Shown in pieces: positions 4,439-62,834 of a stretch of 64,000 nucleotides of DNA. This DNA is from Candidatus Jorgensenbacteria bacterium GW2011_GWB1_50_10 (GTDB taxonomy: Bacteria > Patescibacteriota > Minisyncoccia > UBA6257 > GWB1-50-10). The DNA lies in assembly GCA_001004105.1 (NCBI GenBank), contig LCQK01000002.1:75419-139418 (forward strand), given 5' to 3'. The notes below the pieces were generated by a model, which was not told where the DNA came from, did no database searches, and saw only the letters and a list, made by a program, of their open reading frames with translations. The position numbers and the translations under genes were made by a program. Each line of letters begins with the position of its first letter. Within the stretch, counting starts at the first letter, position 1.

Positions 4439-5551
4439 ATGTCCGTATTTTATCTTAGCAAAACGGATTTGAAAAAAATGCGCGGCAAAACCGCTCTTGT
4501 TCGGGTTGACTTGAATATTGAGCCGGGTGCTGAAAAAAATTCTTTTCGTCTGGAGGCAATTTTGCCGACAATCCGCTTTCTCCTCGCGCGAGGCGCAAAA
4601 GTTGTAATCTTAAGTCACCGCGGCAGGCCCCGCGGCCGCGATAAAAACCTTTCTTTGCGTCCATTTGCCCCGATTCTCCAAAAAGAGTTAAAACAGCGAG
4701 TTGAGTTCATGACGGTGCTACCCCGCATGATAGCACCGCAGAGGGGCAAGGTATTTCTGCTGGGAAATTTGCGTTTTTGGAAAGGTGAGGAGAAAAACGA
4801 CGTCGGTTTCGCCCGCCGGCTCGCCGCACTCGGCGATTTTTATGTGAACGACGCCTTTGCCGTCTCGCACCGCAAGAACGCATCGGTCGTCGCCATCACA
4901 AGATTTTTGCCTTCCTATGCCGGCTTGCTTTTGGAAAAGGAGATTAAAAACCTGGGTGGTATACTTAAGTATACCACCCACCCGTTTACGATAATCTTGG
5001 GCGGCGGCAAGACCTCGGATAAGCTCGGGGTGATGAATTATTTCTGGAACAAAGCCGATAACCTTCTCTTGGGCGGTGCGCCGGCAAACACGGTGTTCGT
5101 CGCTCAAAAGTTGCCGGTAGGAAATTCGTTGATTGACAGAGGTTCAACCTCCCAAATATTGAAGTTAATTCGTAAGGAGGTTGAACCTCGTAAAATTGTG
5201 TTGCCGCTTGATGTCAAAATTGCCGACAAAAAGATTCTGGATATCGGCCCGCAGACGGTTGAGAAGTACAGCAAGATAATTTCTAAATCCAGAACAGTTA
5301 TCTGGAACGGCCCGCCCGGGCTTTTTGAAAAGAAGGGATTTGAAAAAGGAACAATCGGCATCTGGCGTGCCATCTTACGAAATAGGAAAGCGAAAATCAT
5401 TGTCGGCGGCGGCGAAACAACCGCGTCTTTTTCCCTAATTCATAATTCAAAATTCATGATTCCGAAGAATATATTTCTTTCCACCGGCGGCGGCGCCATG
5501 CTGAAATTCTTATCCGGCAGAAAACTGCCCGGGATTGAGGCGTTAAAATAA
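4439..5551 (+). CDS. pgk: Phosphoglycerate kinase
   Basis: VRVDLNIEP...ILPTIRFLLARGAKVVILSHRGRP N-domain signature. IILGGGKTSDKL and C-terminal GGGETTA motifs. Note the 24-nt palindrome at 4955-4978 embedded in-frame. Confidence 0.85.
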   Translation: MSVFYLSKTDLKKMRGKTALVRVDLNIEPGAEKNSFRLEAILPTIRFLLARGAKVVILSHRGRPRGRDKNLSLRPFAPILQKELKQRVEFMTVLPRMIAPQRGKVFLLGNLRFWKGEEKNDVGFARRLAALGDFYVNDAFAVSHRKNASVVAITRFLPSYAGLLLEKEIKNLGGILKYTTHPFTIILGGGKTSDKLGVMNYFWNKADNLLLGGAPANTVFVAQKLPVGNSLIDRGSTSQILKLIRKEVEPRKIVLPLDVKIADKKILDIGPQTVEKYSKIISKSRTVIWNGPPGLFEKKGFEKGTIGIWRAILRNRKAKIIVGGGETTASFSLIHNSKFMIPKNIFLSTGGGAMLKFLSGRKLPGIEALK

Positions 5552-15988: not shown

Positions 15989-17380
15989 TTATTTTTTGAG
16001 CAATGAATCGGTGTAGTTCACAATATCGCCGGCGCCCATCATTACCACAATAGGGGATAGGTTATAGGTGATAGGTTTTAGGAGTTCTTTAATTTTGGTT
16101 CTGATTATTTTTGGGTTATTCAAGTAAAAAACTTTCAGCGTTTTTGCTCTTTGCGATATGCGCTTTGCGAGGTCAGCCGACGTGTAGCCCCTGTGGGGTT
16201 TGTCGCGGCCAGCGACTTGATAAATCGGCAGCAAGAACAAATAATCGGCCGAATCAAAGGCGGAAATGAAATCTTTGAACAAGTTTTGGGTGCGGTGGGC
16301 CTGGTGTGGCTGGAAGACGCAGATTATTTTCTTTTTGGGGAATTTCTCGCGGAAGGCCTGGAGAGTAGCTTTGATTTCGGTGGGGTGGTGGGCGTAGTCG
16401 TCGTAGACGGGAATTTTAGGTTGTAGGTGATAGGTTGTAGGTGATAGATAACCCCTAAATTCCATTCGGCGCCAGGCGCCGCGGTACGAGCCCAGAGCTT
16501 TCAATATTATCTGCTCTTTAATGCCGAGCGCGCGGGCGAGCGTGAAAACAGCGAGAGCATTGGAAACATTATGTTGCCCTGGGATTTTTAAAACCCTTTT
16601 TATTTTATGGTAGGCGCTATAATTAATTATAGCGCCGTACCAGATTACTTTGAAGTTTTTACGTTTTGCGATTTTTTGGATTTTGGATTTTAAACTGTGG
16701 AGGTTTTTATCATCCCGGTTCGCGATTAAAATGCCGCCGGATTTTATATTCCCGATGAATTTGAGAAATGACTTTTTGACGTTTGCTAAATTTTTGTAAA
16801 CGTCCAAATGCTCCCTATCAATGTTCGTGATGACAGCGTAAGTGGGGGAGTAGTTATGAAAAGAGGCCTTCCATTCGTCCGCTTCAAGGGTGAGGTAGTC
16901 GCTCTTGCCGTTCCGGAAATTGGAATTGCCGAACTCTTTAAGCCGGGTGCCGACGATAACCGTCGGGTCCAGACCGGTTTTCATAAGAACGAGCGAGGTT
17001 AAAGCCGTCGTCGTGCTCTTGCCGTGGGCGCCGGCAACGGCAATGGTTTTATATGCCTTAGTCAAGGCCCCAAGCATTTGGGGATAAGTGAAAGCAGGGA
17101 TGTCCCGGCGCCTCGCTCCCCTTAATTCGGGGTTTTCCGGGGTAATAGCTTGGTTATAGACGACCAAAGCGGTTTTGGGGCTGATATTGGCTTTTTTATG
17201 CCCAATTTTGAGTTTTAAGCCCTTCTTTTGGAGCTTTCGGAGTAAATCACTCGGGGCGATATCAGACCCGGAAATAGCCCAATTTTGGGCTAAAAACCAC
17301 TGCGCCAAAGCGCTAATGCCGATTCCACCCACGCCGATAAAGTGGGCCAAGGGTTTATTTAAAGGGGAGAGGTTTTTCAT
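15989..17380 (-). CDS. murC: UDP-N-acetylmuramate--L-alanine ligase
   Basis: HFIGVGGIGISALAQ, GAHGKSTTTAL, EADEW, DDYAHHPTEI. Contains embedded repeats at 16054-16084, 16415-16460 and 16613-16636. Confidence 0.85.
   Translation of the reverse strand: MKNLSPLNKPLAHFIGVGGIGISALAQWFLAQNWAISGSDIAPSDLLRKLQKKGLKLKIGHKKANISPKTALVVYNQAITPENPELRGARRRDIPAFTYPQMLGALTKAYKTIAVAGAHGKSTTTALTSLVLMKTGLDPTVIVGTRLKEFGNSNFRNGKSDYLTLEADEWKASFHNYSPTYAVITNIDREHLDVYKNLANVKKSFLKFIGNIKSGGILIANRDDKNLHSLKSKIQKIAKRKNFKVIWYGAIINYSAYHKIKRVLKIPGQHNVSNALAVFTLARALGIKEQIILKALGSYRGAWRRMEFRGYLSPTTYHLQPKIPVYDDYAHHPTEIKATLQAFREKFPKKKIICVFQPHQAHRTQNLFKDFISAFDSADYLFLLPIYQVAGRDKPHRGYTSADLAKRISQRAKTLKVFYLNNPKIIRTKIKELLKPITYNLSPIVVMMGAGDIVNYTDSLLKK
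16613..16636. repeat. Perfect 24-nt palindrome GGCGCTATAATTAATTATAGCGCC inside murC (encodes GAIINYSA)
   Basis: Read directly. Identical copy inside murG at 23222-23245. Confidence 0.85.
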
Positions 17381-17790: not shown

Positions 17791-19133
17791 TGGACAGTTC
17801 GGCTTACGGCGCCGGCTGGAATATTCGGCAAATAATCCCGCGGATTAATTGTAACACCAACCGGCACCAAACCGGCTGCCGGCGCGATGGATTTCAAACT
17901 CACGCTCGGCGTCCAGTAAAGCGTAAGGTGCAGGTGAGCGCCGTAGGAGTAGCCAGTGTCGCCGGAGTAGCCGATTGTGTCGCCTTTCATAATCCGCTCG
18001 CCTTTCTGGACGATTTGACGCGAGAGATGGGCGTAGATGCTCGTTAAACCGTTGTCGTGTTGAATCAAAACGTATTTGCCGTATTGGTATTTCAACCAAC
18101 GCGAGGTGCCACGGTCGTTGTTATCCACGGCGATGACTGTGCCGGTTTCAACCGCCATAATTGGTGTGCCGATCGGCGCCCGGAAATCAACGCCGTTGTG
18201 TGTCTTACTCCGGTATGCGCGCTGAGCGAAGGCCGTAGGGCCGAAGTCCTGCGTAAGATAGGGATTCTCCACCGGAAAACCGATAACGCCGGGACGTTTT
18301 ATCGGCAGCAAACTCGGGTCGAAAGATTTGCGGAGTTGGTCTTCATATTCGTCCATAATCTTGCTGATTTTCTCCTGCTGTTTGTCCAGTTCCGCGATTT
18401 GGGCTTGGTAGATTTTTTCCTGGTTTTTGGTTTGAGTGAGAACCGTGTTTTTGACGGTTTTCTGGGCCTGGACTATCTGCTGGCGATTCGTTAGATTGAC
18501 TCGTTCTCTTTCTTTCTGCGCCTGTTTTATCTGTTCCTCGCTTAATTTTTCCACCAAGTCCCCCTGATATTTACGGAGTTCTTCAGCGCTCGCGTTTAAA
18601 TCACTATTCAAGGTGGCGATAGATTGGGCTTCCGAGACGCTCTCGGCCAAACTCTGGTTTCGCAGGAAGATTATCAGGAAATTTTCCCGATCTTTTTGCT
18701 GGAGTTCCACCATAAGCCGCCCGATAGTCGCTTTTTTGTTGTCTATACTTTCCTCAATGCCTTTGATGTCGCCGCTTAGCGATTCTATTTCCAGCGCGAG
18801 TTTATCGAGCGTCACCTGATTCGCTTTGATGGAGAGATTAAGTTGACTGATGTTGTAGTCAATGGTTTTTAATTCCTTTTGGAGGGAACTTTTAAGAGAG
18901 CCGGTTTGTTCCAATTGTTCTTCAATCTTGGCGCGTTCCTCCATTAATTGCTGAAGCTCGGCGTTTTTGGCGTCAATCTGCGACCGTAAACTATCAGCCG
19001 TGGCGGCATTGCCGTTCCCACTCCCCTCCTCCGCGGTTTGCGAGAAGATCGGCGACGTTGAAATTAACCCGATTAATAGAATTATGAATAATGAATAACG
19101 AATTAATTTCATACCATCTCTTGAAGATAACAT
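17787..19133 (-). CDS. M23-family metallopeptidase with N-terminal coiled coil (EnvC-like)
   Basis: Long Q/E/K-rich coiled coil followed by LytM motifs: HNGVDF, TSIYAHLS, GAHLHLTL. Confidence 0.8.
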   Translation of the reverse strand: MLSSRDGMKLIRYSLFIILLIGLISTSPIFSQTAEEGSGNGNAATADSLRSQIDAKNAELQQLMEERAKIEEQLEQTGSLKSSLQKELKTIDYNISQLNLSIKANQVTLDKLALEIESLSGDIKGIEESIDNKKATIGRLMVELQQKDRENFLIIFLRNQSLAESVSEAQSIATLNSDLNASAEELRKYQGDLVEKLSEEQIKQAQKERERVNLTNRQQIVQAQKTVKNTVLTQTKNQEKIYQAQIAELDKQQEKISKIMDEYEDQLRKSFDPSLLPIKRPGVIGFPVENPYLTQDFGPTAFAQRAYRSKTHNGVDFRAPIGTPIMAVETGTVIAVDNNDRGTSRWLKYQYGKYVLIQHDNGLTSIYAHLSRQIVQKGERIMKGDTIGYSGDTGYSYGAHLHLTLYWTPSVSLKSIAPAAGLVPVGVTINPRDYLPNIPAGAVSRTVQ

Positions 19134-53459: not shown

Positions 53460-53891
53460 TTATACTTGCGGGTTCGTTTCGCTGCTTCTCCGCCATTTTT
53501 CGTCCAGGGACCAAGGACCGGGGCCGGCGGCCGAAAGATAAAGCCATACAAAAGCGAAAAATACCGCAGGCATTCCGCCGTTCAAGACCGTCCAGAAACC
53601 CTGCGGATAGTGGCCGATAAAGTAGGCAACCGCCATCTCGCCCGCGAGGATGAAAGCCACCGGTCTCGTGAAAAGCCCGAGGAGCATTAAGGCGCCGCCC
53701 ACGACTTCTAAAAATCCGGCGAGGCCAAACAGCGAAAAGAGTTCCACCGTGCCGCCTGATGGGGGTAAGCCGGCCGGGAAAGCGAAGAGCTTCATTGCGC
53801 CCGGCTGGATGAACATGAATGCGGCGACGATGCGGAGTATACTCCGCAGATAAGGCGACCAAGATTTCCACCGAAAGATTAAATTTTTCAT
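53460..53891 (-). CDS. DoxX-family membrane protein
   Basis: Four TM segments. ILRIVAAFMFIQPGAMKLF pattern. Start set to the internal Met. Confidence 0.55.
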   Translation of the reverse strand: MKNLIFRWKSWSPYLRSILRIVAAFMFIQPGAMKLFAFPAGLPPSGGTVELFSLFGLAGFLEVVGGALMLLGLFTRPVAFILAGEMAVAYFIGHYPQGFWTVLNGGMPAVFFAFVWLYLSAAGPGPWSLDEKWRRSSETNPQV

Positions 53892-57704: not shown

Positions 57705-59552
57705 CTACTTTTTCAAGAGCTCGCGGAAGACCTCGGGCGAAACCCGTACTTCGGCTCTCTGCTTCAGGAGTTTTTTGCCCCGCTTCTGCTTCTGCCAAAG
57801 TTTCATTTTTCTCGTCCGGTCGCCGCCATATAAATAGCCCGTCACGTCTTTTTTCAAGGCCGGGATGTCCTCGCGGGCAATGATTCTTCCCAGGGCGCTC
57901 GCCTGGATGCTTTGGGCGAATTGTTTCCGCGGCAGGAGTTTTTTCAGCCGCTCGGTCATAAGCCGTGCCTCCCTTTCGTAAGTGCCCCTCGGGTAAAAGC
58001 GAGAGAGGCCCGGCACCGGCTCGCCCGCAAGGAGAATTTCAACCCGTACTATATCGGCCCTGACGTATTCGGCCGGTTCGTAGCTGAAAGAAGCGTAGCC
58101 CTCGGTGAGTGATTTCAATTTGTCGTCAAAATCGCTTACCAAGTCAAAAAGCGGCATTTTGGCGGTAATTTCCATTTTGTCCTGAATTAATTCAGTTTTC
58201 ACGCCGCTCATCCGAAAAATCTGCTGCAGCGGGTAAAAATCTTTTAGGAACCGCGGCGGCATTATTATTTCAACACTCACCGTCGGCTCCCAAATCTCCT
58301 CAAACTCGGCGGGTAAATCTTCCGGCTTTATTATTTCTTCAAAACCTTTCTTGGTCTTGACCCGGTACAAAACCGAAGGGAAAGTGTTCGTCGTTAAAAC
58401 ATTGAATTCCCGCTTTAATCTTTCAGCTGTAATCTCGAAATGAAGCCGACCGAGAAATCCGACTTTGAAGCCACGGCCCAAGACCGCGTTTTGGTCCGGC
58501 CCGATGGCGAGCGCCGAATCGTTGAGCTTCAGTTTTTCCAAGCTTTTGCCCAGGAGTTCGTGATCGTCGGCGTCTTCCGGGTAAAACGAAACGAAAACCA
58601 CCGGCTTCGGCTCTTTATAGCCCACAAGGGCTAAATCACTAATGCTCACTAATTTCCCACTAATCTCACTAATGCTTCCATTTGTAATATTCGTGTTCAA
58701 AAATTTGTGCTTATTAGTGATTAAGGTGTCGCCGATTTTGATTTTGTTCGGGTCCTTGATGCCAGTCGCAATGTAACCGATTTCCCCGGCGCGCAAAACT
58801 CCGCTTGGCTTGAATTGAGGCATAAAAAATCCCAGTTCTTTCATTTTCGATTCAGTCTCGGTCGCGATAAGGTGAATGGTGTCTTCTCTTTTGATTTCAC
58901 CATCAAAAACCCGAAGAGACGCCACTACGCCCTTGTGGTCGTCGTAAAAAGAATCAAAGATGAGGGCCCGGCTGACTTCGGCTGTCGGGTCGCCCAAGGG
59001 TCGCGGCACTCTTTCTATCACGGCCGCCAAAAGCTCCTCCGCGCCTTGCCCTGTTTTCCCGGAAACATAATAAATCTCTTCAAGCGGCGCCCCAACGAGC
59101 GCTGCCACGTTCTTCCTCAAATTTTCCAGTTCGCCCATCCGATTTTGAAAAATATCGATTTTGTTCACGGCACCGATGATTTTAAGGCCCGCGTTTTTCG
59201 CCGCCCGTAAATTCGCGAGTGTCTGGGCTTGTATCCCTTGGGTTGCGTCAACGAGAAGTATCGCCCCCTCCACTGCCGCGAGTGCCCGCGAAACTTCGTA
59301 GGAAAAATCGCTGTGGCCGGGAGTGTCAATCAGATTTAGGGTATAGGTTTTAGGTGATAGGTTATAGGACATGCGGACGGGGGCCATTTTAATGGTGATT
59401 CCCCGCTCCCGTTCCAGTTCCAATTGGTCCAGATACTGGGCTTTCATTTGGCGCTTCGGCACCGTCCCGGTAATTTCAAGAAACCGGTCGGCAAGCGTTG
59501 ACTTGCCGTGGTCAATGTGGGCAATAATGCAAAAATTCCGGATATCCTGCAT
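57705..59552 (-). CDS. lepA: Elongation factor 4 (LepA)
   Basis: NFCIIAHIDHGKSTLADR, LIDTPGHSDF, NKID, LepA-specific C-terminal domain. Contains a 10-bp tandem repeat insertion at 58636-58676 and heptad repeats at 59333-59368. Confidence 0.9.
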   Translation of the reverse strand: MQDIRNFCIIAHIDHGKSTLADRFLEITGTVPKRQMKAQYLDQLELERERGITIKMAPVRMSYNLSPKTYTLNLIDTPGHSDFSYEVSRALAAVEGAILLVDATQGIQAQTLANLRAAKNAGLKIIGAVNKIDIFQNRMGELENLRKNVAALVGAPLEEIYYVSGKTGQGAEELLAAVIERVPRPLGDPTAEVSRALIFDSFYDDHKGVVASLRVFDGEIKREDTIHLIATETESKMKELGFFMPQFKPSGVLRAGEIGYIATGIKDPNKIKIGDTLITNKHKFLNTNITNGSISEISGKLVSISDLALVGYKEPKPVVFVSFYPEDADDHELLGKSLEKLKLNDSALAIGPDQNAVLGRGFKVGFLGRLHFEITAERLKREFNVLTTNTFPSVLYRVKTKKGFEEIIKPEDLPAEFEEIWEPTVSVEIIMPPRFLKDFYPLQQIFRMSGVKTELIQDKMEITAKMPLFDLVSDFDDKLKSLTEGYASFSYEPAEYVRADIVRVEILLAGEPVPGLSRFYPRGTYEREARLMTERLKKLLPRKQFAQSIQASALGRIIAREDIPALKKDVTGYLYGGDRTRKMKLWQKQKRGKKLLKQRAEVRVSPEVFRELLKK

Positions 59553-62798: not shown

Positions 62799-62834
62799 AA
62801 GTTTAATTTTAAGGCTTTTTAAGAGATAAATAAA

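Follow-up and report, generated by a model that had tools for sequence, protein, structure and literature searches.

Imperfect in-frame heptanucleotide arrays in loop-coding segments of murC and lepA of a Jorgensenbacteria genome

Introduction

Three runs of the heptad TNNTAGG, two of them within murC and one within lepA, lie on the plus strand of a 64-kb stretch of contig LCQK01000002.1 (the whole of which was analyzed and is referred to here as the window) from Candidatus Jorgensenbacteria bacterium GW2011_GWB1_50_10, a genome of the Candidate Phyla Radiation (CPR) from a groundwater (Rifle) metagenome. We interpret these runs as the antisense view of imperfect in-frame (CCTAnnA)x5 arrays, and as one example of a class that occurs throughout the Jorgensenbacteria/Paceibacteria (CPR) lineage. 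The likeness of the arrays to one another is DNA-level and not the product of protein convergence, and we consider it moderately probable that they are heptanucleotide simple-sequence arrays for which slippage supplied the seeds, short-patch conversion the means of spread or overwriting, and selection the filter.

Results

Three heptad arrays in murC and lepA

All three runs that had been called in an original prediction made on this DNA are present, each with five units (approximately TAGGTNN, with 5/7 unit positions fixed) and each antisense to the coding sequence (Table 1); they had been described correctly, but some starts were off by 1–2 nt and the end given for the second site (16460) lay too far by ~12 nt. 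Matches to the four-unit pattern TAGGTNNTAGGTNNTAGGTNNTAGG with up to three mismatches were confined to the three sites (0 in 100 dinucleotide shuffles), all nine matches to a three-unit pattern with one mismatch fell within them (dinucleotide-shuffle expectation 0.01), and no weaker copies of TNNTAGG arrays were found elsewhere in the 64-kb window. A 25-mer, TAGGTTNTAGGTGATAGGTTNTAGG, is common to the three sites with 23/25 positions fixed, and its 13-mer core is exact at all of them. Tandem Repeats Finder reported periods of 7 and 14 (murC array 2 being a 14-nt period with 100% matches), and each site qualifies as a heptanucleotide long simple sequence repeat (LSSR) in having at least three head-to-tail 7-nt copies.

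The arrays encode loops, and the peptides given for MurC and LepA in the original prediction are right on translation. In an AlphaFold2 model of window MurC (predicted local distance difference test score, pLDDT, 93), both arrays form coil loops that have the lowest confidence in the protein: array 1 is modeled as coil between a helix (423-433) and a strand (444-449), where pLDDT dips to 72, and array 2 as a beta-hairpin tip that joins strands 307-312 and 323-328 (pLDDT 74). The lepA array lies at the G-domain beta-hairpin between RGITIK and DTPGH, in a loop of standard clade length. The statement that the arrays bring no net length change holds against E. coli, but it needs qualification within the clade, where the MurC loops vary by indels and some orthologs are without this sequence.

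Table 1. Heptad arrays of the window, weaker heptad-like stretches and the genes that carry them
Feature	Position	Strand	Units on + strand	Sense-strand units	Product or translation
murC	15989-17380	minus			463 aa; Pfam Mur_ligase, Mur_ligase_M, Mur_ligase_C
murC array 1	16048-16082		CAATAGG GGATAGG TTATAGG TGATAGG TTTTAGG	CCTAAAA CCTATCA CCTATAA CCTATCC CCTATTG	LKPITYNLSPI, about residues 434-444, C-terminal loop
murC array 2	16414-16448		TTTTAGG TTGTAGG TGATAGG TTGTAGG TGATAGA	TCTATCA CCTACAA CCTATCA CCTACAA CCTAAAA	(Y)LSPTTYHLQPK, about residues 311-322, loop before DDYAHHP
Weaker heptad-like stretch in murC	16143-16168
Weaker heptad-like stretch in murC	16674-16691			(AAAATCC)x2.6
lepA (EF4)	57705-59552	minus			615 aa; Pfam GTP_EFTU, LepA_C
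lepA array	59334-59368		ATTTAGG GTATAGG TTTTAGG TGATAGG TTATAGG	CCTATAA CCTATCA CCTAAAA CCTATAC CCTAAAT	(S)YNLSPKTYTLN, about residues 62-74
pgk	4439-5551				array in loop between GGGET and STGGGA
pgk array (different heptad family, units AATTCnn)	5431-5461	+		CTAATTC ATAATTC AAAATTC ATGATTC	SLIHNSKFMI
M23 peptidase array	19075-19108	minus		TTAATTC GTTATTC ATTATTC ATAATTC	KLIRYSLFIIL, residues 2-12 (start 19112, taken from the gene call in L001)

The arrays resemble one another as DNA

On their sense strand the arrays read (CCTAnnA)5, and their 14 CCTA cores fall in each of the three codon phases in turn (3,1,2,3,1 in murC array 1; 1,2,3,1 in murC array 2; and 2,3,1,2,3 in lepA); the shared 25-mer is consequently translated in three ways, as PTTYHLQP, YNLSPKTY and LKPITYNL. 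In the long open reading frames (ORFs) of the window, CTA is the rarest Leu codon (4% of Leu) and CCT makes up 15% of Pro codons, and the CTA codons of the two host genes lie within the arrays in 4/4 cases in murC and 2/3 in lepA (6/7 over both genes). Because the CCTA cores cycle through all codon phases, and because the rare CTA and CCT are used against genome usage, the likeness is DNA-level. The original prediction's reading of the likeness as DNA-level is supported by phase rotation, by rare codons, and by loops that are unconserved in amino acids among orthologs.

Stop codons set the limits within which such arrays can vary. The TAGG strand has TAG in all three frames, which fully explains the strand bias in the window, where all three arrays are antisense-TAGG. 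Oriented genomic oligomers (uptake sequences, Chi and KOPS), by comparison, are each one fixed 8–12-mer with hundreds of copies in a genome and a strand bias tied to replication. The 'nn' positions are limited as well: in phase 2, A or G at n1 would give TAA or TAG, and in phase 3 the unit variants 'TA' and 'TG' would give TAA or TGA.

The same loops carry different heptads in orthologs

We compared window MurC with 120 homologs (54–75% identity) in an alignment, and scanned 120 LepA homologs for peptides. Both MurC array positions are hypervariable indel loops, at which many homologs carry peptides with a 7-residue period, and four orthologs (P0007, P0012, P0047 and P0057) are without any loop insert, a presence/absence polymorphism at orthologous sites. 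Heptad-derived peptides, defined as those with at least 8/9 residues matching a perfect-heptad translation, occurred in 39/120 MurC and 11/120 LepA homologs (0 and 1, respectively, in shuffles), and they cluster at positions ~310 and ~430 of MurC and ~63 and ~279 of LepA.

At the nucleotide level, orthologs differ at the same loops in both unit number and unit sequence, and some are without an array. In a 75%-identical MurC ortholog, loop 2 contains a perfect (AATTCAA)4 and the C-terminal loop contains CCTAnnn units; five further MurC orthologs have heptad arrays in both loops, of the types CCTA, CTNAAAA, CGCTTAG or CTCAAAA. In LepA, where the hairpin has the standard clade length and the form Y-x6-Y-x-LNL, (GAATTAK)4 occupies it in an 81%-identical ortholog, and an 82%-identical one keeps the array of the window and carries another CCTA array in the linker that connects domains II and III. 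Three different heptads occupy the PGK loop in three genomes. Strong amino-acid conservation as the sole cause of shared codons, which the original prediction had named as a refuting outcome, is not seen: the loops are unconserved in amino acids among orthologs.

Within the population itself, no length or sequence variation of the arrays was seen in six independent assemblies. The window MurC protein is unchanged on 14 contigs, a 99%-identical variant (P0001) differs only at residues 92-109, and window LepA is 100% identical to the EF4 of Candidatus Jorgensenbacteria bacterium GW2011_GWA1_48_13 (CPR/Patescibacteria).

Two LepA homologs (P0141 and P0148) have a ~160-aa in-frame insert with a PF13366 domain (PD-(D/E)XK, GxxExxY-type). 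It is placed at exactly the hairpin of the heptad array, and this hairpin of the G domain thus tolerates whole-domain insertions.

Period 7 is enriched in the window and its relatives

A simple autocorrelation scan of periods 4 to 15 found nine arrays at period 7 and five at period 14 in the window, against 0–2 at each other period; local shuffles of the window gave 0.5 period-7 arrays, and a 50-kb control region of E. coli that includes the dcw cluster gave none. Loci from eight relatives (~84 kb) held 21 period-7 arrays. Period 7, with its harmonic 14, is therefore the only non-triplet period enriched in the window, is enriched also in the eight relatives' loci, and in the window shows the excess over chance and over other unit lengths that defines LSSRs. 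Over this clade sample of 148 kb we count 29 arrays, of which 22 are inside ORFs of at least 160 aa. Past the three sites, where the original prediction had proposed to look for enrichment, exact TNNTAGG is absent from the window, but heptad arrays of other sequence occur (in pgk, in the M23 peptidase gene, and elsewhere in murC; Table 1).

Arrays adjoin native codons and have been copied in a relative

CCTAnnn arrays in the MurC C-terminal loop end in the conserved Pro-Ile 'CCT ATY' (orthologs of 59–75% identity), and (AAAATTC)n arrays end in a native 'AAA ATY CCC'. In one relative (L251, MurC ortholog P0106), the same imperfect 37-nt array stands in both loops (L251:5874-5915 and L251:6244-6278) and includes the flank 'CCT ATT GTT'. 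Since this flank is native only to the C-terminal loop, that loop was the donor in L251; the identical pair shows ectopic copying and is evidence of conversion within the gene, in which loop 2 received the array of the C-terminal loop.

A second case involves the window directly: positions 16414-16490 and L127:1594-1680 share 78 aligned nt with one mismatch and a 6-nt indel, in genes that are 69% identical overall. The patch comprises array 2 plus KIPVYDDYAHHPTE, extends past the array into DDYAHHPTE, and looks like a short inter-lineage recombination tract. There is also a 23-nt identity between window MurC array 1 and a second LepA loop in L249, and the heptads in a protein's two loops resemble each other more closely than do those of different proteins (p = 0.03, n = 9). 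Among the drivers that the original prediction had listed, gene conversion from a dispersed repeat is supported by the L251 37-nt pair and by the 78-nt patch shared with the 69%-identical ortholog; nothing in the analysis shows protein-binding sites or recombination signals, which had been named beside it.

Scans of public sequence

Among the matches listed in a scan of genome contigs with a generic four-heptad pattern, most were perfect heptamer microsatellites (of cyanobacteria, Bacteroidota and others), and the few from CPR lay in ORFs or just upstream. The scan shows that TAGGTNN microsatellites are widespread but is uninformative on enrichment. A metagenome scan with TAGGTNNTAGGTGATAGGTNNTAGG returned a list of matches dominated by generic (TAGGTGA)n arrays, other sites of the window genome not being among the matches listed. 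A 25-mer scan of viral contigs for a phage link gave 0 matches.

Generic (TAGGTGA)n and (TAGGTGN)n arrays are common in metagenomes over a wide G+C range (L058, L167, L206 and many of L129-L247). They are often paired with a nearby inverted copy that gives recurring 'VLGV/VVGG' translations upstream, which suggests hairpin-forming intergenic elements that would be unrelated to the coding arrays. At L113:5904-5928 and L155:1146-1170, TAGGTNN-type arrays encode leader peptides in type IV pilin-like proteins (MQNLKPKTYNLKPNKGFTLIE and MPYHLSPTTYHLRRRRSGFTLI), and on other CPR-like contigs arrays stand immediately upstream of starts (before MCGIAGIF in L228, and before a TrxB-like N-terminus in L030).

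Other features of the window and of related loci

At 53506-53531 the window has a weak GC-rich 7-nt periodicity (GGGACCA AGGACCG GGGCCGG) that may be due to chance; no open frame that covers it is longer than one of 167 codons, counted stop to stop, on the minus strand. AAATCCT-type heptad arrays occur in the orthologous Bac_transf/GT4 spacers of two relatives (L248:6685-6711 and L250:6704-6759), in opposite orientations, and the corresponding spacer of the window (62799-62834) is too short for a heptad array. Positions 1-2529 of the window hold the 3' part of a 23S rRNA gene (1-1494), a LAGLIDADG homing-endonuclease ORF (1517-1990) and then 5S rRNA (2418-2529); free-standing LAGLIDADG ORFs are found directly upstream of murC in two relatives (L127:106-612 and L128:9448-9945).

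Discussion

We reason that three steps could together give rise to the arrays. In the first, slipped-strand duplication of a 7-nt unit beside a native codon pair would seed arrays locally, a candidate pair being the conserved Pro-Ile 'CCT ATY' that starts the strand after the MurC C-terminal loop. In the second, which is seen in a relative and which we infer for the window genome, short-patch template switching or gene conversion would copy or overwrite arrays, both between arrays and between lineages. In the third, which the arrays themselves show, selection keeps only the stop-free orientation as sense strand, only frame-preserving total lengths, and only unit variants without TAA in their reading phase, and an array persists only if it falls in a structurally permissive loop, a gene terminus or a spacer. 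The peptides would then be tolerated by-products of translation. The arrays in the window genome are degenerate and fixed, and they would be explicable without a dedicated DNA- or RNA-level function.

Several points weigh against this explanation. With no array variation in the six assemblies of the population, ongoing instability is unsupported. The heptad repertoire is restricted (A-rich units with two or three pyrimidines, of the CCTA and AATTC families), and the same heptad families recur across genomes, contrary to what pure local seeding would predict. Third positions are conserved at 11/12 in the shared LepA arrays, against 56% gene-wide, and at 12/12 in MurC, and this synonymous conservation could mean nucleotide-level constraint rather than recent conversion. 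The 7-nt length of the unit is left unaccounted for by the mechanism, and the evidence base consists of 64 kb of the window genome and about 84 kb from eight relatives.

An alternative, which we regard as unlikely, is a dedicated, very small mobile or dispersed cassette of about 25–37 nt, which a specific mechanism would actively insert into loop-coding DNA or put in its place, by analogy with cyanobacterial small dispersed repeats or in-frame Rickettsia palindromic elements. Such a cassette would explain why the three window arrays agree at 23/25 positions, why an identical 37-nt array occupies two L251 loops, why a 23-nt identity joins non-homologous loops of different genomes, why the lepA array replaces an equal length of sequence, and why array length is always about 4–5 units. 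However, the three copies have neither flanks nor termini nor target duplications in common, the same loops harbor many unrelated heptads (among them the perfect, local (AATTCAA)4), the arrays adjoin native codons that resemble seeds, and the viral contigs gave no match. Moreover, each codon phase allows few stop-free unit variants (from the alphabet AA, TC, TA and CA), so that 23/25 identity is moderately likely, and largely to be expected, within one heptad family; we therefore gave it less weight as proof of a common cassette.

We likewise think it improbable that the arrays are functional cis-elements under selection, whether as phased DNA or mRNA sites for a heptad-reading protein (cold-shock/OB-fold, S1-like or nucleoid proteins would be examples) or as rare-codon pause sites at domain boundaries. 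The better conservation of synonymous sites in shared arrays than elsewhere in the gene, the recurrence of arrays at the same loops across 59–82%-identical orthologs, the restricted heptad repertoire and the concentration of the rare CTA codon would all fit such a role, as would work cited in PMC4679880 in which CspB is reported to bind heptamer repeats, with one protein per unit. On the other side, close relatives differ completely in the heptad at a given loop (CCTAnnA, AATTCAA or GAATTAK) and some orthologs are array-free, so no single motif is conserved; the conserved patches run beyond the arrays into ordinary coding sequence, which fits recombination better; and no structure is predicted in the arrays. 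The combined idea, a new CPR system in which short heptad cassettes are actively copied equal-length and in-frame into particular surface loops of housekeeping proteins or are kept as phased sites for a heptad-reading nucleic-acid-binding protein, we also hold to be a slim prospect; were it true, a DNA-level process that turns over between lineages would write the loops of essential enzymes.

A structural role as telomere-like or G-quadruplex (G4) G-strand repeats, as for GGGNATC of Xanthomonas and Nostoc, is very improbable. The arrays do have GG tracts 7 nt apart on the non-coding strand in at least four units, and G4 heptamers are known to favor about four units (PMC4692102); but the tracts have two Gs only, the heptads of relatives at the same loops are without G runs (e.g. 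AATTCAA), and the arrays are gene-internal and not at replicon ends. No G4 or hairpin was predicted on the G-rich strand (ViennaRNA with G-quadruplex folding and DNA parameters; minimum free energy 0 to -0.8 kcal/mol, weaker than shuffles). The telomere-like resemblance noted in the original prediction is accordingly superficial, with a single unit that reads TTTAGGG and with arrays of 35 nt inside genes. Equally implausible is protein-level convergence, in which MurC and LepA would have come to similar codons because selection favored like loop peptides (YxLxP-type hairpins) in both: the peptides are alike (YNLSP and YHLQP) and the LepA hairpin natively has Y-x6-Y-x-L-N, but this explanation is already contradicted by the phase and codon-usage analyses, the shared DNA being read in three frames into different peptides and codon choice opposing genomic usage, while ortholog peptides at these loops are unrelated and amino-acid selection cannot yield a 7-nt period.

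Three narrower candidates were set aside. A phase-variation contingency locus does not suit arrays that are imperfect, lie in essential housekeeping genes and are invariant in the population, and two conceivable functions, as an anti-Shine-Dalgarno mimic (mRNA sequence AUCACCU) or as a source of antisense stop codons in three frames, were dropped given that relatives carry unrelated heptads in the same loops.

Heptad simple sequence repeats (SSRs), commonly taken to be intergenic and avoided in coding DNA, are shown here to persist in essential genes where they are open in three frames and fall in a permissive loop, and in one CPR lineage heptad arrays repeatedly give rise to variation in the loops of MurC, LepA and PGK. 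The CPR arrays could serve as a system in which to ask why heptanucleotides dominate long bacterial SSRs (e.g. through polymerase footprint or slippage) and how short-patch ectopic conversion proceeds in minimal genomes. Because such segments share DNA-level ancestry and not protein homology, alignments, phylogenies and selection tests that use CPR marker proteins can be led astray by them.

In a literature search we found no report of heptanucleotide arrays in coding sequence or housekeeping-gene loops of Patescibacteria/CPR; several known systems do bear comparison. Rickettsia palindromic elements are 100–150-nt palindromes that lie in-frame in protein genes, and they resemble the present arrays as repeat DNA tolerated in-frame in loops of conserved proteins, the arrays here being unlike them in consisting of 7-nt tandem units. 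The cyanobacterial short tandemly repeated repetitive (STRR) heptamers and small dispersed repeats, reported by Mazel in 1990 and Elhai in 2008, similarly include very short dispersed elements of 21–27 nt associated with heptameric repeats; their proposed mode of spread is copying that leaves no target duplication, and they are reportedly mostly intergenic, with nearly identical copies in the hundreds. In the 64 kb of the genome covered here, neither a copy number of that order nor a master sequence is seen.

The closest general class is that of prokaryotic heptanucleotide LSSRs. In the account of Mrazek 2007 relayed by PMC4679880 (also PMC4692102), the long SSRs of prokaryotes most often have heptanucleotide units, polymerase slippage is proposed as their origin, and non-triplet units are reported to be avoided in coding DNA. 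The present arrays share with LSSRs, as these sources portray them, tandem 7-nt units in excess over other lengths and slippage as a proposed origin. The LSSRs described there are mostly intergenic and often perfect, whereas the arrays here are imperfect, have ~5 units, lie in-frame in essential housekeeping genes, and occupy recurrent loop hot spots at which their sequence differs between orthologs.

Individual heptamer families offer further parallels. The TAACTGA repeats of marine Beggiatoaceae, cyanobacteria and Bacteroidetes (PMC4679880) likewise form dispersed sets with 2–6 heptamer copies and one family per genome, in which stop codons decide the coding orientation and a minority lies inside ORFs; however, they are a single conserved heptamer found for the most part directly ahead of start codons, where a role in translation has been proposed, whereas here several families lie mostly inside ORFs. 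GGGNATC of Xanthomonas and Nostoc (PMC4692102) is also a heptamer with a preference for about four units whose G-rich strand tends to be non-coding, and the arrays here differ from it in having GG tracts only, no predicted G4 and a coding location. Finally, the tandem repeats of Borgs (PMC9879509) are, like the arrays of MurC and LepA, fast-evolving nucleotide repeats in ORFs that add flexible protein segments; in-ORF Borg units are multiples of three, whereas the 7-nt units described here place successive units in different frames.

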